Virus record (IMG/VR): IMGVR_UViG_3300043427_001988
Location: 4,927 to 68,926 of that record
Strand: one strand, 5' to 3'
Length of the DNA: 64,000 bases
Source of the DNA: a virus
This document shows, piece after piece, positions 194-16,000 of the stretch. How positions within the stretch are numbered: the first letter of the stretch is position 1; each line of letters begins with the position of its first letter. Made by a program: the position numbers and the translations under genes. The notes below the pieces were generated by a model. The model was given only the letters and a program-made list of their open reading frames with translations, ran no database searches and was not told where the DNA came from.

Positions 194-248
194 AGTATAC
201 ACGATAAACAAACCGGTGTCAATAGCAGTTTTATGAGAAATCTCTCAT
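194..248 (-). promoter_or_regulatory. sigma70-type promoter with upstream ATGAGA-N4-TCTCAT palindrome
   Basis: TTGACA (222-217), 17 bp, TATACT (199-194); palindrome at 233-248. Confidence 0.9.
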
Positions 249-322
249 AATCGGGGCTTGGGGCACCCCCTACCCCCTAAAACCCCTTACACTTTCGTGC
301 AAGGGGCTAGAGGTGTAAGTGA

Positions 323-1045
323 TTAGTGATACTTGAAACCGATTACACGGGGCGTTGTAAGGCTTGGTAATGCGCTAGGAGCGCACAAGCGACACGCTAC
401 ACATTTTACAGTACCCTGTGTAATCTGATTTGGGCAAATAACTAACTTTGCCCCGCCTAACATATCCGGTGTAGGAATATTTTTTACATTTACCGCCAAC
501 GTCGTAAGCCATCCTAATGCACGGGCAAGCCGTACTTCGTCTGCTGTATCACATGAAGCCATAAACCATTTTTTGAGCGGTTGCAATTCATCTAACATCC
601 AGCCGTGAGTGTATCCGATACTTTTTACACCGATTGCATCTAATTGTTCACACGCCCACACTTGTGCATCAATATACTCTTTACTTGGCTTATCGTTCTC
701 AAACACATCACCGCTAACATGCCAGCGTACCATTTGTACACGTTTAGCCGCAGTTACGCCCTTGCCTTTATCAGCGTTGCGTAGCGTCATAAACTTTGAC
801 ACTTCTACCCGTAACTTAAGAGCATCTACCATACCCGATTTTGCCTGCTGTAAATTAGTGCGCCCTTTTTTGGTGTAACAGATAGTCATACGCCCGAATG
901 CTTGACGTTTTGCCTCACCGTACTCGTTAGGCTCGGGGTGATACATACACGACGACGGGCAAGAATCACCGGTACGGTTGTATGTTACTGCTACTGATTT
1001 GTCGGTTGACAGTTTCGCATCGCCACTATTTACTACAAACTTCAT
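323..1045 (-). CDS. Cys-rich phage protein, GP88-like (possible Fe-S protein)
   Basis: SCPSSC..CY, RWHVSGD, YTHGW, ASCD, CPNQ..CVACRLC motifs resemble the GP88-like phage family; AGGAG RBS. Confidence 0.6.
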   Translation of the reverse strand: MKFVVNSGDAKLSTDKSVAVTYNRTGDSCPSSCMYHPEPNEYGEAKRQAFGRMTICYTKKGRTNLQQAKSGMVDALKLRVEVSKFMTLRNADKGKGVTAAKRVQMVRWHVSGDVFENDKPSKEYIDAQVWACEQLDAIGVKSIGYTHGWMLDELQPLKKWFMASCDTADEVRLARALGWLTTLAVNVKNIPTPDMLGGAKLVICPNQITQGTVKCVACRLCAPSALPSLTTPRVIGFKYH

Positions 1046-1244
1046 AATCGTTACTCCTCAATCACTTACATATATAGTATAACATACAAATACCCAAAGT
1101 AAAATGAGAGAATGATGAGAAGCAACACTTTACACCCTTACACCGGCCAGGGCTTTGTGATGCGGTGTTGGCCCTGGGTGGTGTAAGGGGGCCTGTGGGC
1201 GACCCCCTACCCCCTAATTCAAAGTGAATTGGGGGCTGTGGTGA

Positions 1245-1499
1245 CTAGTCGTCGTATGCAGGGTCTGTACCGTCTTGATGAAAAGTCATTCCTACTCGAT
1301 TGTAGTTACCGTTAACAAACTCAATGTGTTGAGTAATACGAAAATCAGCGGTTTGTAGCCACTTATCTGAAAATGGTATCAGCAGAAACTCGTAACCATC
1401 CTCATCCAAAAATCGAATACCATCCTCAACGACAACCAAGCGGTAATCGTGGGTATGTTCCTGCCGACTTACTAAGTCACCTCGGTTAAAGAATGTCAT
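1245..1499 (-). CDS. hypothetical early protein
   Basis: ORF with GAGG RBS directly behind cassette promoter 1529-1557. Confidence 0.75.
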   Translation of the reverse strand: MTFFNRGDLVSRQEHTHDYRLVVVEDGIRFLDEDGYEFLLIPFSDKWLQTADFRITQHIEFVNGNYNRVGMTFHQDGTDPAYDD

Positions 1500-1528
1500 A
1501 ACAACCTCGCTTACTAACTTATGTATTA

Positions 1529-1583
1529 AGTATACCGCAAACTAGTGTATCTGTCAACAACAAGTTTATGAGAGTTTTCTCAT
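1529..1583 (-). promoter_or_regulatory. sigma70-type promoter with palindromic box
   Basis: TTGACA 1557-1552, 17 bp, TATACT 1534-1529; ATGAGAGTTTTCTCAT at 1568-1583. Confidence 0.9.
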
Positions 1584-1622
1584 TTGACGTGCTGCACGGC
1601 CTGGGGCACCCCCTACCCCCTA

Positions 1623-1844
1623 CTACGCTGGATTACCCAGGTAGTAGTGGACTTCATATACATCTATCAATTCCCCGTTTTCGTCGAGTGCCTCAAAGTG
1701 ACCGTCTACACGCTCTAGTTCATTTTCATAACAATAATCCGCACAATACATATCCGAACGCAATATAAAATCATCCATATCATTAATAGTAAAATCATCC
1801 ACCAACATCAAATCTTCACCCATATACGCACGTACTGTAATCAT
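1623..1844 (-). CDS. acidic hypothetical early protein
   Basis: ORF; AAAGGA RBS before MITVRAY; stop abuts the G-box repeat. Confidence 0.7.
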   Translation of the reverse strand: MITVRAYMGEDLMLVDDFTINDMDDFILRSDMYCADYCYENELERVDGHFEALDENGELIDVYEVHYYLGNPA

Positions 1845-1857
1845 CTGCTTATCCTTT

Positions 1858-2226
1858 CTACCATACCTCATTATTCCAGCGTGGATAGGTTAACCATCGA
1901 CGAGGCTCAAAACGCTCATCCAGTAATTCCTTCCCAAATACTGCTATTGAATCAATAACATCTTCATCTTCTTCCCCAAAGTATGCACAAGCGACTACCT
2001 TATTCCACTCTTCGGCGTAATAGTGATTCTTCCCTACAATCAGTTCGTATACATCGGGAAATTGTGCATACTCATAACCATGCACGAAAAACTTAATATT
2101 ACCTACATGACGCACAAGATGACGAACACGCCCACCGAGTACCATACGTGCGGCTTCAATTCGCTCTTCCACGCTCATCTGCTGTACCAAACGCATCACA
2201 TTCTCTAGGCTCATTGTGTACTCCAT
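1858..2226 (-). CDS. hypothetical early protein
   Basis: ORF behind TGnTATAAT promoter at 2244-2252. Confidence 0.75.
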   Translation of the reverse strand: MEYTMSLENVMRLVQQMSVEERIEAARMVLGGRVRHLVRHVGNIKFFVHGYEYAQFPDVYELIVGKNHYYAEEWNKVVACAYFGEEDEDVIDSIAVFGKELLDERFEPRRWLTYPRWNNEVW

Positions 2227-2371
2227 TTCTTGATTACATAGGTATTATAACACACTTTTGATAACTGAATTATGAGAACAAGATTAGAAAAACGGATTTT
2301 CAGTTTTCAGTTTTCAATTTTCAATTTTACTTGACTTTTTTCGATTTTCGGGTTACCCCCTACCCCCTACG

Positions 2372-2404
2372 CAAAAAGCCCCCGCTGATTACTCAACGAG
2401 GGCT
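2372..2404 (-). terminator. probable intrinsic terminator
   Basis: Minus strand AGCCCTCG...CGGGGGCT followed by TTTTT, downstream of ORF 2421-2837. Confidence 0.55.
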
Positions 2405-2420
2405 ATATACATTGTACACA

Positions 2421-2837
2421 CTAGGGAATAGCAAACCGAGAGCGATACCCTTCAATACCTAACTGCTCCGGCACACCTTTACTAATCAGTTCCTCAAACG
2501 AAACCGAGTGAGAGTATTGTACCTTCTCTGCTTCCGCATGGTAATGGTATATCTCTACCGTCTGCGTTGACCATGTGATTACAGGCAATTCACGGTACTC
2601 TGATTCGGGTAGAAACCGACCATACAACGACACACCACCGCCGAGCGTTGATTCATAACTGTTGATGATAGCATTCAACGCAATACGATTTGCATATGAA
2701 TAATCACTCCATCGCCCACTAGCCTGCACAACGGCGTTTTGTGCATCTACCATAGGATGCTTGCCCCAATGTGCATACACAAACATGATAGGCGACATCT
2801 GCGTATCACGAATACCCACTACTACACGATTACCCAC
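2421..2837 (-). CDS. conserved-type phage hypothetical protein
   Basis: MGNR...YAHWG N-terminus typical of a widespread phage family; GAGG RBS. Confidence 0.75.
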   Translation of the reverse strand: MGNRVVVGIRDTQMSPIMFVYAHWGKHPMVDAQNAVVQASGRWSDYSYANRIALNAIINSYESTLGGGVSLYGRFLPESEYRELPVITWSTQTVEIYHYHAEAEKVQYSHSVSFEELISKGVPEQLGIEGYRSRFAIP

Positions 2838-2880
2838 TAGCGCACCTCTTTCTATCTCTTACACAAGTATTATACCACAA

Positions 2881-3147
2881 TTAAAAATAGCGGTCAATCA
2901 TATCTTCGTAATCTTCCCCACGCTCATACTCCGAGATACGGTACTTAATACCCTCTGATTCAGCACGGTTAAGAAACTCCGGCGCATCACAATCCTCTTC
3001 GAGATACCACGTACTACCGACACAAACACTAAAACGAGTAGGCTTGAAACTGACACGCTCAACGAGAAACGTGGGCACTTCCAAATACCCGTGACGTGGC
3101 GTGCTTGAGAATACTAGACCGTAGATTACTTGTTGTGTGTTGCTCAT
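2881..3147 (-). CDS. phage hypothetical protein (STPxHG...LEEDCD type)
   Basis: Motifs STPRHGYLEV and WYLEEDCDA; AAGGAG RBS. Confidence 0.75.
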   Translation of the reverse strand: MSNTQQVIYGLVFSSTPRHGYLEVPTFLVERVSFKPTRFSVCVGSTWYLEEDCDAPEFLNRAESEGIKYRISEYERGEDYEDMIDRYF

Positions 3148-3353
3148 TTGGCAATTACTCCTTAACTTGACTACATAATTATTATACCAGACTTTTATGA
3201 GAATGGGGTGAGAGAATTTTGGGTTCCTGGACCAGGACCAAGGTAGTGCAGCGACGGCCTCACAAATGCCCCTAGAAATTTATTAGAGCGACGATAGCCC
3301 CAAAGTAGGGGGGCTGGGGGGTACGCCCCGAAGGGCTTGTTGTCAAGTGGTTT

Positions 3354-3587
3354 TTAGAGCAAATCTACCTCATTTGAACTAATCCAGTGCCCAACGTTAT
3401 TACGGTAATCCACCACGGCTATAAGCATTTCTTGAAGGTCGTTTAATGTGTATGTAAACTTTTCTACTGTTTTATACCATTCCAGCACATCGTTTGATGT
3501 AATTTCCAAAAAACAATGATTTTGAGTAATTTCGATGGTCAATGTGTATGCTTTGTACTCGGTAGTGACTTTATTAGTCCACATCAT
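3354..3587 (-). CDS. hypothetical early protein, paralog A
   Basis: GAGG RBS; similar to 3717-3965 (MWT...Y.L.I.ITQ...VVD....WI.SN.VD.L). Confidence 0.8.
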   Translation of the reverse strand: MMWTNKVTTEYKAYTLTIEITQNHCFLEITSNDVLEWYKTVEKFTYTLNDLQEMLIAVVDYRNNVGHWISSNEVDLL

Positions 3588-3618
3588 AACGCACCTCACT
3601 TAACTTGATTACATTAGT

Positions 3619-3673
3619 ATTATAGCGCAGGTAATAACCCGTGTCAAGAGGAAGTAGATGAGAGTTTTCTCAT
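3619..3673 (-). promoter_or_regulatory. sigma70-type promoter with palindromic box
   Basis: TTGACA 3647-3642, 17 bp, TATAAT 3624-3619; box at 3658-3673. Confidence 0.9.
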
Positions 3674-3716
3674 TTGACAAACGCCCCGGTCTGGGGCACC
3701 CCCTACCCCCTATCGC

Positions 3717-3965
3717 TTACAACGTGTCTACATCATTTGAATGAATCCATACCTTGAAGTTGAGGTAGTTATCAACTACCTTCATTAATAGTGCTTGTGC
3801 ATCTTCTAAGGATGCATCGCCACGGTTAATTATATGTGAAAATACCGGCGGGCTATCATATTGATTTGGTGCATCAATGAATAGGATATAATCCCGCTGA
3901 GTAATCACAATTTCCAAATTATACAACTCATAATCCCGCGATGCTCTCACTGTCCACATGTCCAT
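3717..3965 (-). CDS. hypothetical early protein, paralog B
   Basis: GAGG RBS, own promoter near 3998-4025; similar to 3354-3587. Confidence 0.8.
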   Translation of the reverse strand: MDMWTVRASRDYELYNLEIVITQRDYILFIDAPNQYDSPPVFSHIINRGDASLEDAQALLMKVVDNYLNFKVWIHSNDVDTL

Positions 3966-4021
3966 GATGTACCTCACTTAATTTGATTACACTAGTAGTA
4001 TACCATGAACCTAAACCAATG

Positions 4022-4234
4022 TCAATAAGTTTGTGAAATCCGCTGTAATTGACCGTCTGCATCAACGGTAAAATCAAAAGCGTGGGAATCTAAATCAATA
4101 AAATCATCACCAAAATCTGTGGGCGTGTAGGTTATTGAACTTAACACTGCACCATCTTGAGCATAGGCAGTTACGTCAAAGGTATCAAATCCACGAATAT
4201 GAACTTGGATGCGAACTTGTTGAATCTGGCTCAT
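4022..4234 (-). CDS. hypothetical early protein
   Basis: Start revised to MSQIQQ, behind GGAG RBS and promoter 4271-4299. Confidence 0.7.
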   Translation of the reverse strand: MSQIQQVRIQVHIRGFDTFDVTAYAQDGAVLSSITYTPTDFGDDFIDLDSHAFDFTVDADGQLQRISQTY

Positions 4235-4270
4235 GTCATTAACTCCGTTACTTAACTTGATTACATTAGT

Positions 4271-4325
4271 AGTATAAACGATATTCATACTGTTGTCAAG
4301 AGCAGTTTTATGAGAGTTTTCTCAT
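4271..4325 (-). promoter_or_regulatory. sigma70-type promoter with palindromic box
   Basis: TTGACA 4299-4294, 17 bp, TATACT 4276-4271; box at 4310-4325. Confidence 0.9.
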
Positions 4326-4389
4326 TTGACAAACGCCCCGGCCTGGGGCACCCCCTACCCCCTACGCAACGAAAAAAGACCCGCCCTGA

Positions 4390-4557
4390 TTACCAGGGCA
4401 GGTCTGACAAGTCAACAATCGGACTAGTATCAGCAGGGATAATTACATCTTGCTCATCAATCCACTGCTCCCACACTTGCTCAAAGTCGGGGGCGATTTC
4501 GTCAACTTGCTCATCCATCATGAAGTCGGTGAGGAAGATAAGTGGTAAGTTTGGCAT
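4390..4557 (-). CDS. small, highly acidic protein
   Basis: Start revised to MPNLPL behind AAGGAG; D/E-rich; own promoter near 4588-4616. Confidence 0.7.
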   Translation of the reverse strand: MPNLPLIFLTDFMMDEQVDEIAPDFEQVWEQWIDEQDVIIPADTSPIVDLSDLPW

Positions 4558-4612
4558 TTCGCATCTCCTTAACTTGATTACATACGTAGTATAGCACACA
4601 TTGAAACCGGTG

Positions 4613-4858
4613 TCAAGTGAGTATTTTTTCAATTACCACATACGGGGCAATAAACATACATACATCACTTGGTAACATAAGATGTAATGAAACAGTATCT
4701 TTATTTTGCACATATGCAACCATCTCGGCAATCTCACGGGCACGCTCTTCTGTAATCGTAGCCGCAATACGCTCATCTTCGGTTAATTCAATACGCCCGA
4801 CAATCTCGCCGTTGTGAGTGATTTTGATGTGTGTCCACGGTGCAAGTGTGTTGCTCAT
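4613..4858 (-). CDS. hypothetical early protein
   Basis: Start revised to MSNTLAPW behind AAGGAG. Confidence 0.75.
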   Translation of the reverse strand: MSNTLAPWTHIKITHNGEIVGRIELTEDERIAATITEERAREIAEMVAYVQNKDTVSLHLMLPSDVCMFIAPYVVIEKILT

Positions 4859-4888
4859 TTCGCATCTCCTTAACTTGATTACATTAGT

Positions 4889-4943
4889 AGTATAAACGAT
4901 ATTCATACTGTTGTCAAGAGTAGTTTTATGAGAGTTTTCTCAT
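4889..4943 (-). promoter_or_regulatory. sigma70-type promoter with palindromic box
   Basis: TTGACA 4917-4912, 17 bp, TATACT 4894-4889; box at 4928-4943. Confidence 0.9.
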
Positions 4944-4979
4944 TTGACAAACGCCCCGGCCTGGGGCACCCCCTACCCC

Positions 4980-5081
4980 CTAGTCCTCGTCGAAAAGTTC
5001 TGATTTAATCCGCCCGCTAATTACTAAAACAAAACCCACAATACTTACATAACCCATATAAACCAAAATCATCTCTAACAT
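4980..5081 (-). CDS. 33-aa single-pass membrane peptide
   Basis: MLEMILVYMGYVSIVGFVLVISGRIKSELFDED*; AAAGGG RBS; stop abuts G-box; not in ORF track. Confidence 0.6.
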   Translation of the reverse strand: MLEMILVYMGYVSIVGFVLVISGRIKSELFDED

Positions 5082-5101
5082 AGTACACACCCTTTCTATA
5101 A

Positions 5102-5234
5102 TGGTGGAGATGTCGGGAATCGAACCCGAGTCCAAAATGCTTTACACCATTGAAGGTAGGCGGTTTTCGCGTCTTACCGTGGGCAGTTATCACTACTCAC
5201 CGCCAAAACACCCTGTCAATACCGTGTCATCCCC
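5102..5234 (-). ncRNA. ssrA: miniature tmRNA (tRNA-like domain with very short insert)
   Basis: 5' GGGGATGACACGGTATTGAC...GGACTCGGGTTCGATTCCCGACATCTCCACCA 3'; acceptor stem with G3-U70, no D stem, P2-like helix, T arm, encoded CCA; only 133 nt. Confidence 0.85.
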
Positions 5235-5471
5235 TTATTGCAAATCCAGCGTATTCGTCACAGGATTAAAGTAGCGCACCGTTTTTGAGCCTTTAGCAAA
5301 CAACGGGTTACGAATTGGGGCACTAATTAACCACCGCCCATCATCCTGTGCAATAATCGAAAAATCCTCTAATCGTTGACCGCACATCTTCATCTCACGG
5401 TGTGAGAAAAACAGAGGATGATTCTCTTTGGTCAATCGCTTAATCTCGTGAATCGTTGGTCGCTTGTTCAT
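5235..5471 (-). CDS. phage hypothetical protein
   Basis: ORF with GAGG RBS behind promoter 5503-5531; stop directly abuts the tmRNA 5' end. Confidence 0.8.
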   Translation of the reverse strand: MNKRPTIHEIKRLTKENHPLFFSHREMKMCGQRLEDFSIIAQDDGRWLISAPIRNPLFAKGSKTVRYFNPVTNTLDLQ

Positions 5472-5502
5472 CGTGTCACCTCTTATCTAACCTTATGTAT
5501 TA

Positions 5503-5557
5503 AGTATACAGCACAAATACCAGCGTGTCAAGAGCAATTTTATGAGAGTTTTCTCAT
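5503..5557 (-). promoter_or_regulatory. sigma70-type promoter with palindromic box
   Basis: TTGACA 5531-5526, 17 bp, TATACT 5508-5503; box at 5542-5557. Confidence 0.9.
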
Positions 5558-5593
5558 TTGACAAACCCCGCGGCCTGGGGCACCCCCTACCCC

Positions 5594-5809
5594 CTATCGC
5601 TGAATATGCTCATATTTTGCTTCACATTGTTTACAAATATGTTTCACCCCGACGTTACCATCATAGAAACAATATTCATAAAAGGTATAAAAGCCTGCTG
5701 GGAAAGTAAACACCCGCAAATTATACTCTTCTTTACCACACGCCTGACAATGCGTATCAAAATATCGCTCAAGCCGACCATCATCACCGATACGTAGTTT
5801 AGCCTCCAT
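5594..5809 (-). CDS. small zinc-finger protein
   Basis: CQAC...CKQC; AAGGAG RBS. Confidence 0.75.
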   Translation of the reverse strand: MEAKLRIGDDGRLERYFDTHCQACGKEEYNLRVFTFPAGFYTFYEYCFYDGNVGVKHICKQCEAKYEHIQR

Positions 5810-5991
5810 AGCACACTCCTTAACTAACTTACAAGTACATTATAACACACATTCATACTGAGTTTTATGAGCGCAAGATTAGAAAATCAAATTTTGAATT
5901 TTAGATTTTGAATTTTCAATTTTAAATTTTAATTTTTCTTTTAATTTGACATTTTTTGAAATTCGGGCTACCCCCTACCCCCTGAACGCCA

Positions 5992-6168
5992 CTACGAGTA
6001 GTAGCGTTCGACCAACTCTTCACCATTTGCCCCGATGAAGTAGAGCAGGAACATAGTTTTCGGCATCATGACTTTGAGCAGTTGAATAGTCAACAGTGCC
6101 TTATCCAAGCCCTCTACATCCATTGAGCCGTTCCCGTGAGCGTATTCCATCTTGATGCGGTATGTCAT
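5992..6168 (-). CDS. 58-aa hypothetical protein
   Basis: MTYRIKMEYAHG...ERYYS*; AAGGAG RBS, TATAAT at 6203-6198; not in ORF track. Confidence 0.7.
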   Translation of the reverse strand: MTYRIKMEYAHGNGSMDVEGLDKALLTIQLLKVMMPKTMFLLYFIGANGEELVERYYS

Positions 6169-6300
6169 ATCAGACTCCTTACTTAACTTATGTATCTATT
6201 ATACACCAAAAAAGTACGCTGTGCGCGACTTTTCATGAGAATTAGATGAGAAAACAGGGGGGCTGGGGGGTGCGCCCCGAGGGGCTTTTTGTCAAGCGGG

Positions 6301-6714
6301 CTACTCTTTTGGTATTGGATACCAGCCAAGTAGTTTACCTGATTCATCACAAGTAAACATGTAACCATCAGCGGATAGTCTATCCAAATCACTTGCGATT
6401 TCTTTCCAAAGTGATACCCAATCTTCTTGAGAGATTTGCTCTACATCGGTTACATCATTCTCAAGATACGTAAAAACCCGCCCCAACATATTATCTGACA
6501 AATACCTACATGAAATATCCACCAAATCAGGAATAGGCAAGTCAATAGGCGCAAACATACGATTAGCAAACATAGCACTCTGCTCCTTTTTTACTGAATC
6601 TGTAGCCTTTGATGATACTGAACATTTCACAAGTACCGGTTGCTTTGGTACAAAAGAATCCCGCACATCGTTATTCAACCACTCTTGCAATTCACTAATC
6701 GTCATATCACTCAT
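6301..6714 (-). CDS. hypothetical early protein
   Basis: Start revised to MSDMTI behind AAGGAG; TTGACT/TATACT promoter near 6740-6768. Confidence 0.75.
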   Translation of the reverse strand: MSDMTISELQEWLNNDVRDSFVPKQPVLVKCSVSSKATDSVKKEQSAMFANRMFAPIDLPIPDLVDISCRYLSDNMLGRVFTYLENDVTDVEQISQEDWVSLWKEIASDLDRLSADGYMFTCDESGKLLGWYPIPKE

Positions 6715-6904
6715 AACATACTCCTTACTTACATACATAAGTATACACGAAATGCAGAAAAAAGTCAAACGCAAAAAAAAAAACTCCCCGACGCTGGGCC
6801 GGTGTAGTGGGGAAATGGCCTATACAGGAAATCTCTCGGAGCTGGACCGGAGTAGTGGCCCCTGCGGTTATCTATACGACCTTCAAAAAAAAAAGGGCGT
6901 TTTT

Positions 6905-7035
6905 CGGGGGCGGGGGCGCGCGCGTTATGTCAAGTTGTCGGGGCGTGTAGCGGGGCGGGGCGTGTAGCGGGGCGGGGCGTGTAGGGGCGTTTGGGGGCGT
7001 GTAGCGGGGCGGGGTAGGGGTAGGGGCGGGCGGGT
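6905..7035 (+). repeat. G-rich tandem repeat (GGGGCGTGTAGC/GGGGC units), G-quadruplex-prone
   Basis: More than ten G3-G5 runs in about 130 bp. Confidence 0.85.
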
Positions 7036-7587
7036 TTACCATGATGTGACGTAGTGATACCCTACACAACAATCAATACACGAACCACAATATGCACATG
7101 TTTCACCCGTCAAACAATCGAAACAATCAGTACATGTACAATGATAGCGGGTATCGTTGCATCGTTTGCATTGTAATTCACTACGGTATACATCTGTTAT
7201 GTATTGCGGGGTTTGACGGTATGCAATTACATCGTCTACTACGTAGTGAACCAATTCATTTACGATAAACGCTATAGACGGTTTACGGTGTGTACGAACG
7301 GGGGCGTAATTCATATGTAAACCCGTTTGGTAGTATTTGGTATTTAACGCCCGTACATATCCAAACGTATCATAGTGAACCGTTGCATAAATATGCGTTC
7401 GTTCAATTATGCCAGGTATCGTATACAGCGTATGTAACGCCCCGTTATGGTACGTATGTGCGGGTAAATCAATATTGATAGATAACGCCCCGTTCGTATC
7501 ACGGTGAACCCCTACGCTATACCCCGCAACAATCGTATTAATATAATCACCCCAAACCGTTCGTTTGATAGAATAATTCCTATTCAT
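7036..7587 (-). CDS. hypothetical protein with Cys-rich C-terminus
   Basis: CKRC..HCTCTDCFDC..CAYCGSCIDCC. Confidence 0.75.
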   Translation of the reverse strand: MNRNYSIKRTVWGDYINTIVAGYSVGVHRDTNGALSINIDLPAHTYHNGALHTLYTIPGIIERTHIYATVHYDTFGYVRALNTKYYQTGLHMNYAPVRTHRKPSIAFIVNELVHYVVDDVIAYRQTPQYITDVYRSELQCKRCNDTRYHCTCTDCFDCLTGETCAYCGSCIDCCVGYHYVTSW

Positions 7588-8068
7588 GATTAACCCCCGA
7601 TACAGTATTAATAAACTTACGAATTGAATTGATAGATAAATCCACGTTCACAGAGTAGGGTAGTAACAGTAGTATTTGCTGCGGGGTTAATACATCACGT
7701 TGCAACGAATTACATTTACTACAATCTACATACAAATTGAACGGGGTTAAATTACCCCCGAATATTCGGGGTATCTTATGACATATTGCAAGTTTATCAC
7801 CCCCGCAATTTATGCATTTGGGGCGTTCGGGTAAATCCAAACCGAACCGTTTGCAATTATCGTACACGCCCCTATGTGGTAAATGTTTAAATGATGTATC
7901 ACCCCCGATACTACCCGCTATCAAACCGTTATGCTCTAATAGGATTACATCATGATAGCGTTTATTAAAATCGGTAATTATTGCATCTGTAAGATACATA
8001 GATAATGCATCAAACGCCCCGCCCCCGTTTAATAAACGGTTCACTAGAATTAGTGGTATTTTCATCAC
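7580..8068 (-). CDS. HNH endonuclease-like protein
   Basis: CINC...ICHKIPRIFGG...NLYVDCSKCN matches the zinc-bound HNH pattern. Confidence 0.7.
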   Translation of the reverse strand: MMKIPLILVNRLLNGGGAFDALSMYLTDAIITDFNKRYHDVILLEHNGLIAGSIGGDTSFKHLPHRGVYDNCKRFGLDLPERPKCINCGGDKLAICHKIPRIFGGNLTPFNLYVDCSKCNSLQRDVLTPQQILLLLPYSVNVDLSINSIRKFINTVSGVNHE

Positions 8069-8658
8069 TCACCCCGCAAATTATCTGTATGAACGCCCCG
8101 TTTGATATATTCATAACGCCCCGAACCAAACGCCCCCGCTACATATTCGGTATGTTTGAATAATCGTAAATCGGGTATACGTAAACGAACCGCTACGCTA
8201 TCACTATTCACAAACGCATTATCAATATAGATGTAATCAATAACGGTATTTGTATCGTCTACCATATCCAAACGTAAACGATTTAACGCCCCGCTATTCA
8301 ATTCAATATTAATAATGCATTCATTCGGTAATAGATGATTTACGGGGTTATATTCATACCCGTAAAATATCACCCGATTATGATTATTAAATCGAACCCG
8401 TTCGTTAAATTGTTCTATTGCATCGTGTAGCGTGTAGTGGTTCGTTGTATCGTATAAATACCCCCCGTCGTTTACTACGCTAGTATGAAACAAATCACTA
8501 TAAGAGTAGCAGATGATTTGTAGTGTAGCGGTTTGGGTTTGTGCTACTGCAATAGCATTAACGTCAATACCCCCGTATGTTGTAACAATACGATATGTAA
8601 TACTTGAATAATCTACCCGTTCACCATTTGCATAAATATGCGTTCGTTTGTTAATCAC
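8065..8658 (-). CDS. hypothetical protein
   Basis: Start revised to GTG 8658 behind AGGGG RBS; the ORF-track extension is repeat DNA. Confidence 0.7.
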   Translation of the reverse strand: MINKRTHIYANGERVDYSSITYRIVTTYGGIDVNAIAVAQTQTATLQIICYSYSDLFHTSVVNDGGYLYDTTNHYTLHDAIEQFNERVRFNNHNRVIFYGYEYNPVNHLLPNECIINIELNSGALNRLRLDMVDDTNTVIDYIYIDNAFVNSDSVAVRLRIPDLRLFKHTEYVAGAFGSGRYEYIKRGVHTDNLRGE

Positions 8659-8727
8659 TACGATACCCCTATCAATATAATAGCGGGGGCGTATATCACC
8701 CCCGCAACGAACCCGCTGCAAACCGAT

Positions 8728-8743
8728 TGTTTCACGTGAAACA
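8728..8743. promoter_or_regulatory. parS: parS site (chromosomal consensus)
   Basis: Exact TGTTTCACGTGAAACA. Confidence 0.85.
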
Positions 8744-9124
8744 TTAACCCCGTTTGATTGTTGTAATCAATACGTCTAATGCATCACGGGTATTTTTTGC
8801 ATCATTCGAATATGTTTGTAGACGTGCTACTAATGCATTATTACGTTGAATTAACCCCCGCAACGTTTGTTTGTATGAACGTCGTAATTCTATATCGTAC
8901 CATTTGGTATCAATAAGTAGACCGCTGATAATAGTAATTTGTTTCGTTACATCGTTCAATTCTACGGTGTCAACATGGGTAAACCGTTCGATAGTTTGTA
9001 GCACGTCTAGTGTAGTACCAAATGTTGCAATTTGTAGCGGGTTCATATTCTTAACCCGTTCGTTCAATACCCGCTTATATTCGCTAGAATTAACCGGTTT
9101 ACGTTGCGTTTGTTTGTTATCCAT
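8744..9124 (-). CDS. hypothetical coiled-coil protein
   Basis: ORF with AGGGG RBS; stop abuts parS. Confidence 0.75.
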   Translation of the reverse strand: MDNKQTQRKPVNSSEYKRVLNERVKNMNPLQIATFGTTLDVLQTIERFTHVDTVELNDVTKQITIISGLLIDTKWYDIELRRSYKQTLRGLIQRNNALVARLQTYSNDAKNTRDALDVLITTIKRG

Positions 9125-9138
9125 TGTGAACCCCTATT

Positions 9139-9225
9139 CTATACTAATGCTAAAAATACAAATACTGCTATCACCCAAACATACACCCATACACAAACCC
9201 AAAAAATAAACGTCAAATTATCCAT
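9139..9225 (-). CDS. 28-aa hydrophobic membrane peptide
   Basis: MDNLTFIFWVCVWVYVWVIAVFVFLALV*; same AGGGGTTCACAATGGA start context as neighbours; not in ORF track. Confidence 0.7.
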   Translation of the reverse strand: MDNLTFIFWVCVWVYVWVIAVFVFLALV

Positions 9226-9293
9226 TGTGAACCCCTATCAATATAATAGCGGGGGCGTTTATCACCCCCGCAACGAACCCGCTGCAAACCGAT

Positions 9294-9309
9294 TGTTTCA
9301 CGTGAAACA
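9294..9309. promoter_or_regulatory. parS: parS site
   Basis: Exact TGTTTCACGTGAAACA. Confidence 0.85.
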
Positions 9310-9310
9310 A

Positions 9311-9595
9311 TCACCCACGGTGTCCAAATGTGAACCGGTGTATGTACACCCCGTCGTATTTACCATGTTTGATTAACTTGCGTACACGGTGTATTAACTT
9401 ACGTGCTACCAAATCATCACCCCGTAACAATGCGTTATATGCATCATCTAACAATCTACGTAATCTACCATAATAATCGTATACGTACACCTCATTTACC
9501 CCCAAATTGTAATCATCACATGCACGTTGTAGCATGATACCCGTTGTAACATGTAAGAGAAACAAACGTTTACCTAATTCACTAATGCTATTCAT
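9311..9595 (-). CDS. hypothetical protein
   Basis: ORF between repeat copies; AGGGG RBS. Confidence 0.75.
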   Translation of the reverse strand: MNSISELGKRLFLLHVTTGIMLQRACDDYNLGVNEVYVYDYYGRLRRLLDDAYNALLRGDDLVARKLIHRVRKLIKHGKYDGVYIHRFTFGHRG

Positions 9596-9663
9596 TCGAT
9601 ACCCCTATCAATATAATAGCGGGGGCGTTTATCACCCCCGCAACGAACCCGAACCGAACCCAT

Positions 9664-9679
9664 TGTTTCACGTGAAACA
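9664..9679. promoter_or_regulatory. parS: parS site
   Basis: Exact TGTTTCACGTGAAACA. Confidence 0.85.
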
Positions 9680-9680
9680 T

Positions 9681-9860
9681 TTACACCATTGACCATTGCA
9701 TAAACGCAACATAGCGGGGCGTATCGTATACACCCGCCCGTACATACCGAACGTATGGAACGCTATCACCCATGTACCATGTAGCAGTACCGACAATCAC
9801 CCCGCCCCGTACCAATTGAATGATGTATGCATCGCTATACATCGTATGTTTGTAATCCAT
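9681..9860 (-). CDS. 59-aa hypothetical protein
   Basis: MDYKHTMYSDAYIIQLVRGG...WSMV*; AGGGG RBS; fills the gap between repeats; not in ORF track. Confidence 0.7.
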   Translation of the reverse strand: MDYKHTMYSDAYIIQLVRGGVIVGTATWYMGDSVPYVRYVRAGVYDTPRYVAFMQWSMV

Positions 9861-9928
9861 TGTGAACCCCTATCAATATAATAGCGGGGGCGTATATCAC
9901 CCCCGCAACGAACCCGAACCGAACCCAT

Positions 9929-9944
9929 TGTTTCACGTGAAACA
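9929..9944. promoter_or_regulatory. parS: parS site
   Basis: Exact TGTTTCACGTGAAACA. Confidence 0.85.
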
Positions 9945-9946
9945 AT

Positions 9947-10219
9947 CTATAACCCGTTGCGTTTGTCGGTATGGTATATCATTGTTTGAATGTATACCAA
10001 ATCTAGAATTGACGGTTTACGCTTGTTTTCAATAATGCGTTCACCGTAGCACGTCGTAATAGCGTATGGGTTATGTACCGTTTTGTATACCGTGATGTAA
10101 TAATCACGAACGTACACGAATGTGTAGATTGTTTCATTGCCGTTCACGTCGTTAACCGTTAACGTCGTTGCGGGTGAACCGTCAAACGTCGTATTACCCC
10201 AAATCAAACCATGCTCCAT
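9947..10219 (-). CDS. hypothetical protein
   Basis: ORF between repeat copies; AGGG RBS. Confidence 0.75.
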   Translation of the reverse strand: MEHGLIWGNTTFDGSPATTLTVNDVNGNETIYTFVYVRDYYITVYKTVHNPYAITTCYGERIIENKRKPSILDLVYIQTMIYHTDKRNGL

Positions 10220-10286
10220 TGTAAACCCCTATTCATAATAGCGGGGGCGTTTATCACCCCCGCAACGAACCCAAACCCGAACCGAT

Positions 10287-10302
10287 TGTTTCACGTGAAA
10301 CA
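10287..10302. promoter_or_regulatory. parS: parS site
   Basis: Exact TGTTTCACGTGAAACA. Confidence 0.85.
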
Positions 10303-10323
10303 TTTACCCGAACCCGAACCCAT

Positions 10324-10339
10324 TGTTTCACGTGAAACA
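10324..10339. promoter_or_regulatory. parS: parS site
   Basis: Exact TGTTTCACGTGAAACA. Confidence 0.85.
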
Positions 10340-10567
10340 TTTTCACGTATTGACGGGCGGCATTTACCGATACAATCGGGTATTACGCCCCCCCCGTCTA
10401 TTGAATTGTCAATGTACCGTGATAGCGGGGGTTCGTTTACGCTACGTTTACCGTATGGGGGCGTTCGCAGTAGCCAAACCGTGAACCCCCCCGAACCCAT
10501 ATCACCCGCCCGTATCGGCGTGGACACCCGCCCGTATGGGGGCGGGGCGTAATTTAACGCTACGGGT

Positions 10568-10632
10568 ATTGTAACAAATCCAATACCCCCGTGCCAAAAA
10601 ATAGATTAACGTTTGATGAGAGAATTATGAGA
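10568..10632 (-). promoter_or_regulatory. probable promoter of the island operon, with TCTCAT direct repeat
   Basis: TTGGCA-18-TACAAT with extended TG; ATGAGA at 10616 and 10627. Confidence 0.6.
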
Positions 10633-10769
10633 AAAAACACTTAAAACCGTTTTTATTCATATTTTCTTAACAATCCAGGGGTAGAACAAATGTGCTACTT
10701 TTTGGGGTACGGACTATACACAGACCCTCAAAAATTTTTAAAAGCCTCCCCTTCCTTTTTACCCCCAGG

Positions 10770-10845
10770 AACCCCACATAAACCCCACATAAACCACCAA
10801 GAACCACCAGAGAACCACCAGAGAACCACACATAAACCACACAAT
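10770..10845 (+). repeat. about 11-bp tandem repeat (AACC(C/A)C..., 7 copies)
   Basis: aaccccacata x2, aaccaccaag, aaccaccagag x2, aaccacacata, aaccacacaata. Confidence 0.85.
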
Positions 10846-10864
10846 AAAAAAGAAGAGGAGCATG

Positions 10865-11218
10865 TTACTGCTCCTCCTCCGTGCTATTATTCGTATGTCT
10901 GCTCATGCGCAACCGCCGCTCTTCTACCGGCCTGGATAAATATTCTTCTCGCACATATTCATAGGGAACGTAATCAAGTAATCCCTTCGGGTCATCAAAC
11001 GACGTAGGGCTATTCAGGTGTTTGCGTACATACCATTTCAAATCGCGAGATGGTTTGAGATTAAGCACGGTCATCGTAGGGCCGTAGTGTACGCGTACTT
11101 CTTTATCATCCCAGGCCATGAAATACCCTGCACCCCATCCTTCTTTTGGTTTATAGAATTCTATCCAGCGTTCTTCAATACTCCCGCCGATAACAACGAC
11201 TTTACGAAATAAACTCAT
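10865..11218 (-). CDS. hypothetical protein
   Basis: Start revised to MSLFRKV behind GAGGAG. Confidence 0.7.
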   Translation of the reverse strand: MSLFRKVVVIGGSIEERWIEFYKPKEGWGAGYFMAWDDKEVRVHYGPTMTVLNLKPSRDLKWYVRKHLNSPTSFDDPKGLLDYVPYEYVREEYLSRPVEERRLRMSRHTNNSTEEEQ

Positions 11219-12989: not shown

Positions 12990-13371
12990 TCTCCTTTCGT
13001 TTCACAGTGTAATAGTGAAACCCCTTAAAGCGTTCAAGACGCTCTCTAATTCTGCCGGTCAGGTAGGTAAACACCTCATTCGTGTGTAGTTCTCCCTTCC
13101 AGTTTCCCTCAACGCGTTTTCCTATCATCTTTGGTACGAGGGTATTATCCCCGTAGATTTCGATAAAGAAATCGCTTGTATCCTCGTAGTGAATATGCAA
13201 CCGGCGGAGCATTCTCAGGAGCATTGTAAACTCGCCCTGGTTACTGTCGCCAATTCCGTCCATATCAAACTTGTGGTGGTATAAAATAGTTTTTGGGGAT
13301 ACGTTATCAACATAGATAACATAGCTACCATGTTGCGTACCCCCATCAAAATAACAGATTAACTTCGTCAC
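12967..13371 (-). CDS. RNase H-like protein
   Basis: YFDGG, SNQGEF, IYGDN acidic triad typical of RNase HI. Confidence 0.7.
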   Translation of the reverse strand: MTKLICYFDGGTQHGSYVIYVDNVSPKTILYHHKFDMDGIGDSNQGEFTMLLRMLRRLHIHYEDTSDFFIEIYGDNTLVPKMIGKRVEGNWKGELHTNEVFTYLTGRIRERLERFKGFHYYTVKRKEIVAKLGH

Positions 13372-14525
13372 TCAGACTTGCCGGTAATACCGGAGAGCAA
13401 TTTCTTTTGATACCAGATTTGCTGTGTTGATGCAACCACCCCTGCATCAAGGAACGGCGTGCCATCCTGGTATACAAGTGGTCCCTTCCAAAGGGTTTTA
13501 CCACTAGCCAGCATCGCAATAAACTGGTCTAATGCAGCGTTTTCCGTAAAGGCCTCTCCGCGAGTAAAGCCGATACCATTTGTGTCCATACTGTCAAAGT
13601 CGTCCCAGTTTGGTGCAAACCATACAAAGTCTGGTTGGTATGCGCGGTTCTTTTGTGCGTCGGCAAGGCGCATGTACTCTGGGTACCAGTTAAAGTACGG
13701 AACACCAAGACATGCTTCAGGACCTTTCTCACAGGCTTCTGGGTGGTCATAGGGCAGTGAGTACACGTCCTTTCCATCAGCACGGTGCTTTGCGACTTGT
13801 ACCGCAACGTCTGGGGTGTCAATACCGCCCATGATAACATCGTGACCGGTAGATACAAAGTCCCCCACAATCGTTACGGGGTCAAGCGTAACACCTGGGA
13901 TATTAAACCAGAATCCTACCCATACGACATTAAACGAAAGTGGTTCGGTTTGCCCGCGGAGTGCAGTCCAGCAGTAGTTCGCGCCCAGGTAGGCCGAGTT
14001 GACAAGACGGCGGGTTTCGTCGTTAATGAGTGGCCCGACGTAGCCAATCTTACCGGTCTTCGTGGAAAGGGCTGCTGCACAACCGGCAATCATCTTGCCG
14101 TATTCCATCTGACCCATCACGTTCCCGAGGTTATCTGGAGCCTTTCCTGTGATACGGTCATCGCCTGATGCGTGAACAAACTTGATTTGGGGATGGGCAA
14201 GAGCCGCGTTGCGGGTGCCGTCCTTAAAGTCATCCGAGTTGGTGATAATCATGGTAGCACCCTGACCAATCAACTCCTCAATTACTTGCTCTACCTTAAC
14301 ATTGGGTCGGTCAGCTGGGTTAACCTTGTCTACATAGACGTACTTAATTCCCGCATCTTTCTCCACACGAAGCATGGCATCGTGGTGTGCTTGGCTCCAC
14401 CCGCCGTCGTTAATTGGCCCGACCAACACCATACCAATCGTGGTGGTCTGGGTTTCTGCGGGACTTGCCCCACAGGCCATGAGCATTACGGCGATAATCG
14501 CCATCAGTACTGTTCGCAAAATCAT
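13368..14525 (-). CDS. BMP-family (PnrA/Med-like) ABC substrate-binding lipoprotein
   Basis: Lipobox LMAC; VGPINDGGWSQAH, GKIGYVG, VWVGFWF motifs. Confidence 0.9.
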   Translation of the reverse strand: MILRTVLMAIIAVMLMACGASPAETQTTTIGMVLVGPINDGGWSQAHHDAMLRVEKDAGIKYVYVDKVNPADRPNVKVEQVIEELIGQGATMIITNSDDFKDGTRNAALAHPQIKFVHASGDDRITGKAPDNLGNVMGQMEYGKMIAGCAAALSTKTGKIGYVGPLINDETRRLVNSAYLGANYCWTALRGQTEPLSFNVVWVGFWFNIPGVTLDPVTIVGDFVSTGHDVIMGGIDTPDVAVQVAKHRADGKDVYSLPYDHPEACEKGPEACLGVPYFNWYPEYMRLADAQKNRAYQPDFVWFAPNWDDFDSMDTNGIGFTRGEAFTENAALDQFIAMLASGKTLWKGPLVYQDGTPFLDAGVVASTQQIWYQKKLLSGITGKSE

Positions 14526-14750: not shown

Positions 14751-14754
14751 GAGA

Positions 14755-15954
14755 TTAAAGGTTCATTGGGTTCTGTGCTTGCCAATGTGCAATACGTTTC
14801 TCGGCGATTTCTTTATATTCCTCGCTAAGTTCAATTCCAATAAACTGCATCCCCTCTAATACAGCCGCACATCCCGTACTTCCACTCCCCATAAACGGGT
14901 CTAATACAACTCCATTTGGTGGCGTGACGAGGCGCACGAGGTAGCGCATGAGGGCAATAGGTTTGACGGTGGGGTGGTGGTTGGCTCGTGCATCGCTCGC
15001 ATCCAGCCCAGCCTCCCGCTCAGCCTTCGACGCTTTGGCGGTGTAGAAAAAGCGTGACGGCGTTGCATCACTCTGCTCGTCCAATGCCTCGCCTGCGCTC
15101 TCGTCGAGGATGACGTTGGCAGGCCAGCGGCCGGAGGGTTGCACGAATTGGCCCGCTCCACCTGGCTTTTTACCATTGAAGTACTGGTCTACTTCTCGTG
15201 TGGTATTTCCATATGAACCACCATTCAAATCATCATCCGTCGCCACCCTGCACCCATCAATGTTGAGCGCACCGGTGCCCCACGTCAAAACATTGTCGGC
15301 AACGGTGCCGGTCAGTGGTTTGCGGGCAAGCACGGCAGGCTCATGAGCTGGCTTGATGGCAGTGCCCCAACCGTGCCACTGCTTTGCGAGGTCGGTGGCG
15401 GGAGTGTTTCCAGCGTGTTCGTGATAGCCAACTTCTCTTGCTTTAGTTAGCCGGGGTCTTTCGTCAAGTTCATTTGATAAACCTTTTCCGGCTGTACTTT
15501 TTGGAGTAATTGGAGTTCTTATTAACTCCCTCTCCGCACCTGCCTGCTTATCCAACGCCTTGCTGACATCGTGCGACTTCGGAAACCCCGAGCCATACAG
15601 CCACATAATTGTATCTCTAATTTCAAAGCCTGCTAAACGAAGTGATATAGTCATCAAATCAACAGTACGTGTCCCTGCGAAACAAATAAGATGTCCGCCG
15701 GGTTTTAATACACGAAATACTTCAGACCAAATAGCAGGTGGGGGTACAAAGCCATCCCAGTCTTTCCCCATAAACCCTTTTCCTTCAGGAATGTAGGCTG
15801 GGTCATTTGTTAGCCATGTAGTAAGCGTTGTGCGGATTTTCTTTTCATCAAAAGAACTTAACCCGTAGGGTGGGTCAGTTACTATTGAATCAACACTGTT
15901 ATCCGGAAACTCTTTTAGCACTTCTAGGCTATTTCCTACTCGTAAATCAATCAT
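14755..15954 (-). CDS. DNA N6-adenine/N4-cytosine methyltransferase (beta class)
   Basis: TDPPY at the N-terminus; HPTVKP and VLDPFMGSGST near the C-terminus. Confidence 0.92.
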   Translation of the reverse strand: MIDLRVGNSLEVLKEFPDNSVDSIVTDPPYGLSSFDEKKIRTTLTTWLTNDPAYIPEGKGFMGKDWDGFVPPPAIWSEVFRVLKPGGHLICFAGTRTVDLMTISLRLAGFEIRDTIMWLYGSGFPKSHDVSKALDKQAGAERELIRTPITPKSTAGKGLSNELDERPRLTKAREVGYHEHAGNTPATDLAKQWHGWGTAIKPAHEPAVLARKPLTGTVADNVLTWGTGALNIDGCRVATDDDLNGGSYGNTTREVDQYFNGKKPGGAGQFVQPSGRWPANVILDESAGEALDEQSDATPSRFFYTAKASKAEREAGLDASDARANHHPTVKPIALMRYLVRLVTPPNGVVLDPFMGSGSTGCAAVLEGMQFIGIELSEEYKEIAEKRIAHWQAQNPMNL

Positions 15955-15968
15955 ATAACTCCTTAAAA

Positions 15969-16000
15969 TAAAAAGAGAACGCCCCCGAAGGGGCGTTTCT
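15969..16000 (-). terminator. intrinsic terminator
   Basis: AACGCCCC-TTCG-GGGGCGTT followed by T-rich tail on the minus strand. Confidence 0.8.

Follow-up and report, generated by a model that had tools for sequence, protein, structure and literature searches.

Six chromosomal-type parS sites in an AG/CT-depleted operon at a probable terminal repeat of an uncultured freshwater phage

The IMG/VR virus record IMGVR_UViG_3300043427_001988, a 68,926 bp sequence classed there as linear and estimated by CheckV to be approximately 90% complete, harbours six perfect copies of the bacterial chromosomal partition site, parS, within 1.6 kb of a single leftward operon. The DNA of this operon is strongly depleted of the dinucleotides AG and CT, and probably lies at the edge of a long direct terminal repeat. 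The explanation favoured here, which we consider to have about the same chance of being right as of being wrong, is that this early operon is specific to the lineage and occupies the edge of the repeat nearest the promoter, and that its parS sites serve to tether the phage genome to the ParB machinery of the host in the manner of phage phi29.

All coordinates are positions in the window, the whole stretch of 64,000 nucleotides that was analysed (bases 4927-68926 of the record). The genome is that of a novel, uncultured tailed phage of about 70-85 kb, and the sequencing runs containing it are freshwater metagenomes. Runs X1 (possibly the source sample), X2 (from another sample and study) and X5 (from a third study, with a relative of the phage) were compared by contig. 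A portal search identified 15 related loci in IMG/VR, and five records, of 76.1, 77.8, 72.2, 53.6 and 31.5 kb, were examined; three of these relatives are referred to as G001, G002 and G003.

The parS array and its operon

The six sites, perfect copies of TGTTTCACGTGAAACA, start at 8728, 9294, 9664, 9929, 10287 and 10324, with spacings of 566, 370, 265, 358 and 37 bp. Shuffled sequences gave a chance expectation of 0.17 matches, with none of 100 shuffles reaching six, and no seventh site was found in the 68,926 bp genome even when three mismatches were allowed. All six copies are identical at 16 of 16 positions to tGTTNCACGTGAAACa, which we take to be the near-universal 16 bp chromosomal parS consensus. 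The same consensus is cited as parS in the accessible text of PMC2731898.

No match to PF02195 (ParB_N), PF17762 (HTH_ParB) or PF13614 (AAA_31) was found in this approximately 90%-complete record, the controls for these profiles being positive in 11, 12 and 14 of 14 genomes respectively. With neither a ParB nor a ParA of the phage detected, host ParB is the natural partner of the sites, as a preliminary description of the region had proposed; judged from their sequence, they probably serve it, which would amount to the borrowing of a host segregation protein. ParB acts as a CTP clamp that spreads from parS (PMC12704722, accessible text). A weak hint towards Chloroflexota as hosts comes from an auxiliary gene encoding a Bmp/PnrA-like nucleoside-binding lipoprotein (13368-14525, minus strand), the nearest cellular homologues of which are found in that group, at 57-58% identity; the same protein is 84-85% identical in relatives G001 and G002, and 59% identical in G003. 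Chloroflexota genomes of 4.2-5.3 Mb contain zero or one parS sites each when up to one mismatch is permitted, three of five holding exactly one, and in a Chloroflexus genome the one site present is the exact word of the phage array. Set beside about one per Chloroflexota chromosome, six sites within 1.6 kb would therefore constitute a very strong centromere, and each virion DNA would carry 12 if the terminal repeat is real.

A scan of IMG/VR for the exact parS word returned at least 119 stretches, 80 of which were listed; 17 of these 80 loci have at least two sites and eight have at least three. None of the 17 multi-site loci, among the matches listed, displays the AG/CT depletion at its parS sites, and none of the 80 has proteins in common with the operon described here. 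ParB_N was absent from all ten multi-site records tested (the eight listed with three or more sites and a further two with two), and a protein-primed polymerase was present in three of five, two of these having inverted terminal repeats at 15-16 kb; the genomes with such a polymerase are phi29-like. This suggests that phi29-style use of parS is common in uncultured relatives. Loci L165, L171 and L114 (records G015, G018 and G016) are 15-18 kb long, each with a protein-primed polymerase, three perfect parS sites and no ParB_N.

The tandem repeats, promoter, structured leader, parS-bearing operon, word depletion, G-rich boundary and promoter array named in the preliminary description are all present, at levels far beyond chance, and its statement that the whole is transcribed leftward agrees with the location of every credible open reading frame (ORF) of the module on the minus strand. 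From right to left, the features are as follows.

10851-10880, minus strand: intrinsic terminator of the upstream operon (TerS-like, TerL, portal ... VanW-like, 183-aa), a 12 bp stem followed by a T-run
10770-10848, no strand: 11 bp phased tandem repeats, 7.2 copies, from a repeat scan
10717-10762, minus strand: conserved non-coding element with the core CTTTTAAAAATTTnTnAGGGTCTGTG, from alignment with relatives
10568-10597, minus strand: operon promoter, TTGGCA-18-TACAAT with a TG extension, matching 10 of 12 consensus positions
10220-10562, minus strand: structured leader of 343 nt, containing the first hairpin/Shine-Dalgarno cassette and a pair of parS sites at a spacing of 37 bp
8728-10339, no strand: parS array of six perfect 16 bp palindromes, from a pattern scan
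8683-8705, 9249-9271, 9619-9641, 9884-9906 and 10241-10263, minus strand: five intergenic 9 bp GC hairpins
7036-10219, minus strand: eight ORFs, from ORF calls, which are
9947-10219, minus strand: ORF of 90 aa
9681-9860, minus strand: ORF of 59 aa
9311-9595, minus strand: ORF of 94 aa
9139-9225, minus strand: ORF of 28 aa, a very hydrophobic peptide behind a full parS/hairpin/Shine-Dalgarno cassette, found by eye
8744-9124, minus strand: ORF of 126 aa
8065-8661, minus strand: ORF of 198 aa
7580-8068, minus strand: ORF of 162 aa, HNH-like
7036-7587, minus strand: ORF of 183 aa with a Cys-rich C-terminus
6900-10600, no strand: block of AG/CT-purged DNA, coextensive with the transcription unit
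6900-7035, no strand: G-rich block, C-rich in the transcript, with 4.3 copies of a 17 bp unit at 6939-7014
194-6768, minus strand: promoter array, ten sigma-70 promoters close to consensus, with AAGGAG and one or two small genes accompanying each

Two of the parS sites lie in the leader and one ahead of each of four later cistrons. They form part of 93 nt repeated cassettes, 87-100% alike and each containing a parS site, that on the coding strand consist of parS, approximately 22 nt, a 9 bp hairpin (GCGGGGG-loop-CCCCCGC), a U-rich run, AGGGG and a start codon; each hairpin is thus found about 22 nt past a parS site and about 13 nt ahead of the AGGGG Shine-Dalgarno sequence with its start codon, and four of the five were flagged as terminator-like. 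The exact cassette pattern had no match in the collections of viral contigs and genome contigs. The leader folds at -149 kcal/mol (z = -4.27), with none of 100 shuffles equally stable, a stability that is partly the result of the two palindromic parS sites pairing with one another; an Rfam search of 6700-10900 at E values up to 1 gave no family match. Joints between distant positions (10174 to 9120 in X5, 10343 to 9928 in run X7) hint that cassettes or genes may be fewer in relatives, with recombination from one cassette to another as a possible cause, though the joints are of low likeness or depth and may be artefacts of the repeats.

The proteins encoded by the operon are close to being orphans. 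Searches with Pfam and PHROGs gave only a sub-threshold match, of HNH_5 to the 162-aa protein (E = 2.3e-4; 21.5 bits, under the 27.5-bit cut-off), and the proteins showed no match to HTH_ParB or to any other DNA-binding family. The HNH motif tested was that of a zinc-finger nuclease, CxxC ... H ... N ... CxxC-N, and residues C85, C88, H97, N111, C116, C119 and N120 are invariant in all four aligned sequences, including that of the syntenic gene in G001, the only viral contig found with the HNH profile. Among 5.8 billion proteins, there were two clusters of homologues for the 198-aa protein, none for the 183-aa protein and two for the HNH-like protein; the closest relatives of the module are 65-72% homologues in Logan contigs. 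The 198-aa protein has no relative in viral contigs and one weak match, 31% over 106 aa, in a metagenome contig. No usable match to the operon proteins was present in the ESM Atlas, and an AlphaFold prediction for the 198-aa protein from three sequences was uninformative (pLDDT 50).

At the distal end of the operon, the copy number of the G-rich repeat varies between samples, with insertions at 6961-6992 and joints from 7036 to 6972 and from 7019 to 6972. Watson-Crick folding of this block was not detected (z = +2.95), and its composition makes it a candidate operon end of the Rho-dependent, rut-like type. Nine of the promoters beyond it match 11-12 of 12 consensus positions (222-5531, minus strand), the tenth being at 6768, and the array is a candidate early region of the 'host-takeover' kind. 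Also within the array is an Rfam match to tmRNA (5102-5234, minus strand; 72.6 bits, E = 2.8e-26), which coincides with a spike in depth in all runs and of which approximately 30 nt are common to contigs of other organisms. The early array of G003 seems, by eye, to contain tRNA-like elements behind strong promoters. Phased 7 bp A/T repeats (AAATTTT / AAAATTC) are found within the array of early promoters here (2296-2328 and 5889-5947) and within that of G001 (6001-6047 and 7130-7163 in locus L018).

Depletion of AG- and CT-containing words

The fraction of dinucleotides that are AG or CT is 0.013-0.067 in every 300 bp window starting from 6875 to 10475, with the exception of that at 8875, and reaches such values nowhere else in the genome, for which the mean is 0.113 (standard deviation 0.025). 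Odds ratios in the block are 0.36 for AG, 0.32 for CT, 0.62 for GA, 0.68 for TC and 1.69 for CG. Among trimers, counted on both strands, GAG/CTC occurs 7 times against 96 expected, AAG/CTT 14 against 145, GGA/TCC 14 against 86, CAG/CTG 18 against 102 and AGG/CCT 18 against 87, while TAG/CTA is spared. The purge is strand-symmetric, is seen in all three codon phases and extends to the 956 nt of non-coding sequence, which contain 15 AG and 16 CT where approximately 54 of each are expected; depletion in both strands, all phases and non-coding DNA indicates a constraint on double-stranded DNA. Codon choice and protein composition have shifted with it, Glu making up 3.0% of residues rather than 7.0%, Pro 2.5% rather than 5.1% and Tyr 7.7% rather than 4.3%, so that the ORFs are to be regarded as real genes subject to a word constraint. 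AGA and AGG account for four of the 63 Arg codons in the purged operon; the genome encodes a tRNA-Arg with the anticodon TCT (63082-63157, plus strand), which reads AGA.

Both edges of the block are sharp. On the left, the AG+CT fraction is 0.052 in 6900-7035 and 0.104 in 6650-6900; on the right, it is 0.023 in 10340-10600 and returns to a near-normal 0.092 in 10600-10850. The depleted block of the preliminary description is therefore real, except that it starts at the promoter (10600) and not at the tandem repeats.

The same description held that this DNA would avoid restriction, and the 3.7 kb are indeed poor in restriction-type sites. Among the 617 specificities of REBASE (as provided in Biopython), 406 have no site in the block, compared with 185 +/- 23 (maximum 240) in 32 control windows. 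Sites containing AG or CT number 51, against 587 +/- 95 in the controls, and those without either are unchanged (3022 against 2763 +/- 180), such that the purge removes about 90% of AG/CT-containing restriction-type sites. The lineage practises site avoidance across whole genomes, with different tetramers affected in each relative: GATC is absent from the genome of this phage (about 219 expected); in G003, GATC occurs 0 times against 180 expected, GGCC once against 96 and AGCT 64 times against 186; and in G001, CGCG occurs three times against 94 and GATC 31 times against 238. CACGTG, the core of parS, is absent from both G001 and G003.

Three other causes of the depletion were considered and set aside. 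Those acting on mRNA, namely Shine-Dalgarno avoidance, toxin RNases or tRNA depletion, are ruled out by a purge that is strand-symmetric, in all phases and in non-coding DNA too. Avoidance of the type I-E CRISPR protospacer-adjacent motifs, which we take to be AAG, AGG and GAG, leaves the depletion of GGA, CAG, GGC and AGT unexplained. For avoidance of base-modification motifs, an idea drawn from the accessible text of PMC13229309, no hydroxymethylase, dioxygenase or transglycosylase was found among the 50 proteins scanned, a subset of the ORFs. A separate idea, that Chi-like sites (AGCGG) are oriented so as to stop AddAB entering from the right end, was dropped: 13 are on the plus strand and eight on the minus strand of the segment, too small a skew.

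The candidate terminal repeat and its conserved junction

Contigs to the left of approximately 10.24 kb are about twice as deep as those to the right, as measured by depths that are per contig, where contigs break at repeats and depth is not equal to copy number. Depths in X1 are 32.1, 26.6, 33.1, 42.3, 36.4, 28.6 and 25.3 for the seven contigs spanning 259-9249 and 16.1 for a 53,387 bp contig from 10243. Similarly, the values in X2 are 43, 35.2, 39.6, 45.5, 49.2, 40.3 and 37.4 against 22.8, and in X5, 24.9 and 28.4 against 14.1, 16.1 and 14.6. The ratio of left to right is thus approximately 1.6-2.2 in three runs from three studies, with the promoter array included in the deeper part, and no second set of contigs at 80% identity or more was found over 10.7-14.7 kb in X1 or X2. 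The twofold depth is likely to reflect the collapse of a long direct terminal repeat, 10 kb or more in length. The contig limits suggest a right boundary between 9249 and approximately 10811; the preliminary placement of the physical end near 10.7-10.85 kb is plausible from the depth step at 10243 and from the terminator, phased repeats and conserved element found there, with the boundary itself located only within 9249-10811.

Comparison with the relatives draws attention to the same junction. Synteny is kept on both sides of the operon in the five records, yet the operon itself is absent from all of them, as is parS at up to one mismatch; the sole counterpart is the HNH motif of the 162-aa protein, found at the same position in G001 and G002. 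In G001 and G003, 10 bp phased repeats directly follow the last gene of the terminase/portal operon, just as the 11 bp array does here, the copy number of which differs in the X5 relative (joint from 10840 to 10811). After the phased repeats comes the conserved non-coding element, ...AAAACCAAAGGG-ACCTTTTAAAAATTTGTGAGGGTCTGTG, which is present in five of the 15 related loci, some of which may not extend to this position, with a diverged form in G002. Conservation of an element in cis where the proteins are 50-75% identical indicates that the junction is functional, and the element is a candidate terminase, packaging or repeat-boundary signal.

Downstream of the element, the relatives exhibit a milder form of the purge. 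Seven of the eight lowest 1 kb windows for AG/CT in G001, and the minimum in G003, lie there (z about -3), and the trimer biases correlate with those of this phage at rho values of 0.41 for G001 (controls -0.06 +/- 0.24, maximum 0.46) and 0.55 for G003 (controls -0.03 +/- 0.23, maximum 0.44); the effect is marginal in three other loci, and G002 is broken at that place. That relatives are similarly purged at the equivalent position argues for position-linked selection and not merely imported foreign DNA, and the purge in this phage is an extreme form of it. The module itself is found in X5 in diverged form, with 105 differences in 1545 aligned bases (approximately 7%), and in pieces in X7; a DNA search with the segment found no match among 50,697 phage records.

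The end near the operon may be the first to enter the cell, although we judge it equally possible that it is not. The order of terminase operon, junction and inward early promoters is that of a T7 concatemer, which is what brings the estimate to this level, and the purge, if read as defence avoidance by analogy with T7 and T5, would point to this end as the leading one. The contig of this record starts (genome bases 1-270) within approximately 110 bp of the start of the independent G003 contig (bases 1-160), both at a point where rightward and leftward arms converge. This common start might mark the opposite boundary of the terminal repeat, or reflect an obstacle to assembly met by both contigs.

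Elsewhere in the genome, genes are transcribed leftward below approximately 25.25 kb and rightward above approximately 25.6 kb. The left arm includes a class II ribonucleotide reductase (phrog_367, E = 2.6e-172), the top identity of which to any phage record is 40%, together with an intein-containing large terminase, the portal, a C5 methyltransferase, the Bmp/PnrA-like lipoprotein and a VanW-like protein. The large terminase gene (Terminase_6C; 18833-21436, minus strand) has an intein-like insert, and tblastn with the protein gave no match among the 50,697 phage records. The C5 DNA methyltransferase gene (14755-15954, minus strand) is cleanly absent from the X5 relative, where a joint from 14754 to 15970 skips 1215 bases. 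In the right arm are structural genes and genes for replication (primase-like, DnaB, family-A polymerase, RecA and a Cas4-like nuclease), and an unannotated ORF of 1857 aa that, judged by its size, is probably the tape measure. A gene resembling GIY-YIG/NUMOD1 homing endonucleases (25966-26658, plus strand) is situated at the point of divergence of both arms.

Explanations, precedents and implications

Under the favoured explanation, host RNA polymerase would start at 10597-10568 once the DNA was inside the cell and read leftward through the leader and eight orphan genes, the hairpins perhaps acting as partial terminators or 5' stabilisers, until transcription stopped at the repeat block, which, being C-rich in the RNA, may be a Rho entry site. 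The six parS sites would form a centromere-like loading site for host ParB, from which the CTP clamp would spread, and an incoming or idle genome might thereby be tethered to the ParABS and structural maintenance of chromosomes (SMC) systems of the host, to be positioned or inherited with the chromosome as in phi29. The purge would be a form of defence avoidance by DNA exposed before phage counter-measures.

A number of observations weigh against this account. The absence of parS from all five relatives means that the array is dispensable for the group, and the sole hint as to the host comes from an auxiliary gene, 57-58% identical to its nearest cellular homologues, in Chloroflexota. A stable coat near an end is disfavoured by the ability of ParB clamps to slide off free DNA ends. 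The terminal repeat is deduced from contigs, the depth of which is not a copy number, and not from pile-ups of read starts; a co-occurring mosaic phage having only the early region in common would also produce a twofold depth. As regards the purge, palindromes free of AG and CT are not avoided, ACGT being 2.8-fold enriched, so this is not classical palindrome avoidance; it also stops 250 bp before the proposed terminus is reached, at the promoter, takes up only 3.7 kb of a repeat that is 10 kb or longer and follows the transcription unit as much as it follows distance from the end.

The preliminary description had instead favoured a role during entry, with the parS end leading and ParB, with or without SMC, loading as the DNA arrives to coat it, protect it, pull it in or mark it as chromosome. 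We consider this unlikely, including the forms in which ParB-CTP clamps and SMC loading would shield the free end, anchor it at the origin or pole, or label it as 'self', a label that would evade SMC-family or nuclease defences while the purge hid the first DNA from those that read sequence. The array does lie 0.5-2.1 kb from the candidate end, at which the depth and the conserved element support a terminus; the promoter reads inward, the purge fits DNA that is first exposed, and the host DnaA boxes in the T5 repeat are proposed to act in injection in the accessible text of 10.1101/866236. However, the outermost 250 bp are unpurged, the relatives do without parS, and it is from geometry that direct pulling, coating or disguise by ParB draws its support. 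Nor is a motor role known for ParB, the clamps of which would in any case run off a free end.

Alternatively, the array may be a sink for host ParB, titrating it as the phage DNA increases in copy number and so upsetting segregation, the loading of SMC or controls linked to ParA, or ParB bound there may turn off the early operon after a short burst, by repression or by blocking the polymerase as a roadblock; either seems doubtful, if conceivable. The siting of parS just ahead of a hairpin and Shine-Dalgarno sequence, five times in succession and with two copies in the leader, has a regulatory appearance, 12 sites per genome would compare with about one in a chromosome like that of the candidate host, and ParB reportedly represses promoters adjoining parS in a Pseudomonas study (PMC5521831). 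The regular placement may, on the other hand, simply reflect duplication of the hairpin/Shine-Dalgarno cassette. It is rather improbable that the module is selfish or foreign cargo, a recently arrived mobile cassette of the HNH gene and orphans with the composition and parS sites of its donor and no role here. Absence from five of five relatives, near-orphan proteins and the HNH motif would be expected of such cargo, but the HNH-like gene is the one piece kept at this position in G001 and G002, the relatives show a similar purge there, and the module has six identical sites, maintained cassettes and intact ORFs, and recurs diverged in X5 and as pieces in X7. Most improbable of all is that the palindromes bind an orphan phage protein and resemble parS by convergence. 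Seven or eight uncharacterised proteins are encoded right there, the structure prediction (pLDDT 50) being uninformative, yet six copies are identical at 16 of 16 positions to a near-universal consensus, the same word is the single site in a Chloroflexus genome, and neither HTH_ParB nor another DNA-binding family was detected.

The nearest precedent for tethering through host ParB is phi29, a small lytic phage of Bacillus subtilis, which has five host-type parS sites and the infecting genome of which is placed in the prespore with the help of Spo0J (PMC2731898, accessible text). Like it, and like metagenomic phi29-like genomes of 12-18 kb with three or four perfect sites and no ParB_N, the present phage carries several host-type parS sites without a ParB of its own. 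By contrast with phi29, its genome is approximately 70-85 kb in size, probably has a long direct terminal repeat and encodes a family-A rather than protein-primed polymerase, and its sites are in repeated intergenic cassettes of one early operon, in AG/CT-purged DNA, in freshwater. Its host is probably not a Bacillus; Spo0A boxes (TGTCGAA) number zero in 6780-10860 and five in the whole genome.

Phage T5 offers a second parallel. According to the accessible texts of PMC10644984 and 10.1101/866236, its terminal repeat of approximately 9.7-10 kb holds pre-early genes read by host RNA polymerase and a repeat-rich non-coding region with eight DnaA boxes, sites for a host chromosomal protein; the former source adds that restriction-modification and CRISPR are effective against T5 and BF23 only if their sites are in the repeat transferred in the first step. 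Both phages would have a long repeat containing the earliest genes, a cluster of sites for a host protein and a first stretch of DNA poor in target sites, limited here to 3.7 kb. In this case, however, the sites are parS rather than DnaA boxes and are inside an operon rather than an untranslated region, and the purge is general, at the level of dinucleotides. DnaA boxes with up to one mismatch are absent from the segment, where 1.6 would be expected from its length, which argues against the injection-stop design of T5. With regard to A1 and A2, the operon proteins belong to no Pfam or PHROG family, no search having been aimed at A1/A2 homologues.

The T7 concatemer combines terminase genes, a terminal repeat with flanking arrays of short repeats, strong inward host promoters and an anti-restriction early gene; the promoter-bearing end enters first, and transcription helps to internalise the DNA. 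The T7 repeat, by contrast, is 160 bp long and ahead of the promoters, whereas here the early genes themselves seem to be duplicated and no recognisable Ocr-like protein is encoded. The host-takeover module of SPO1 likewise comprises small early genes with strong host-type promoters. It is located in the terminal redundancy (PMC10531801 and PMC6873191, accessible texts). SPO1 differs in being a myovirus of more than 130 kb with hydroxymethyluracil DNA, and no parS array or local word purge was found described for it in the texts accessible. The clustered 16 bp parS sites identical to the chromosomal consensus are also reminiscent of ParABS centromeres, although, in contrast to the latter and to the partition cassettes of plasmids and phages, no cognate parA or parB is encoded here, and the sites are carried by a virus. 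In the literature searched, which was mostly non-subscription, neither a phage terminal repeat bearing a parS array nor a dinucleotide purge of local extent was found described. The preliminary claim that no described system combines these parts holds for the combination, which is new; it needs qualifying for the components, which have precedents in phi29, T5/BF23 and SPO1.

Use of host parS has so far been a peculiarity of phi29 tied to sporulation, and it is met here in an unrelated, much larger freshwater phage, within an early operon at a probable terminal repeat and in combination with the strongest local word purge measured in the phage group. The case makes it possible to ask to what extent proteins can be remodelled by selection acting on DNA words, the shifts in Glu and Tyr being the example here, and the 1.7 kb array represents a ready-made compact centromere for synthetic use. 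Other viral contigs in IMG/VR that lack ParB have three to five perfect sites, and hijacking of ParB is possibly widespread. If the role during entry, considered unlikely above, were true, phages with long terminal repeats would generally use clusters of sites for host chromosomal proteins, DnaA boxes in T5 and parS in this phage.

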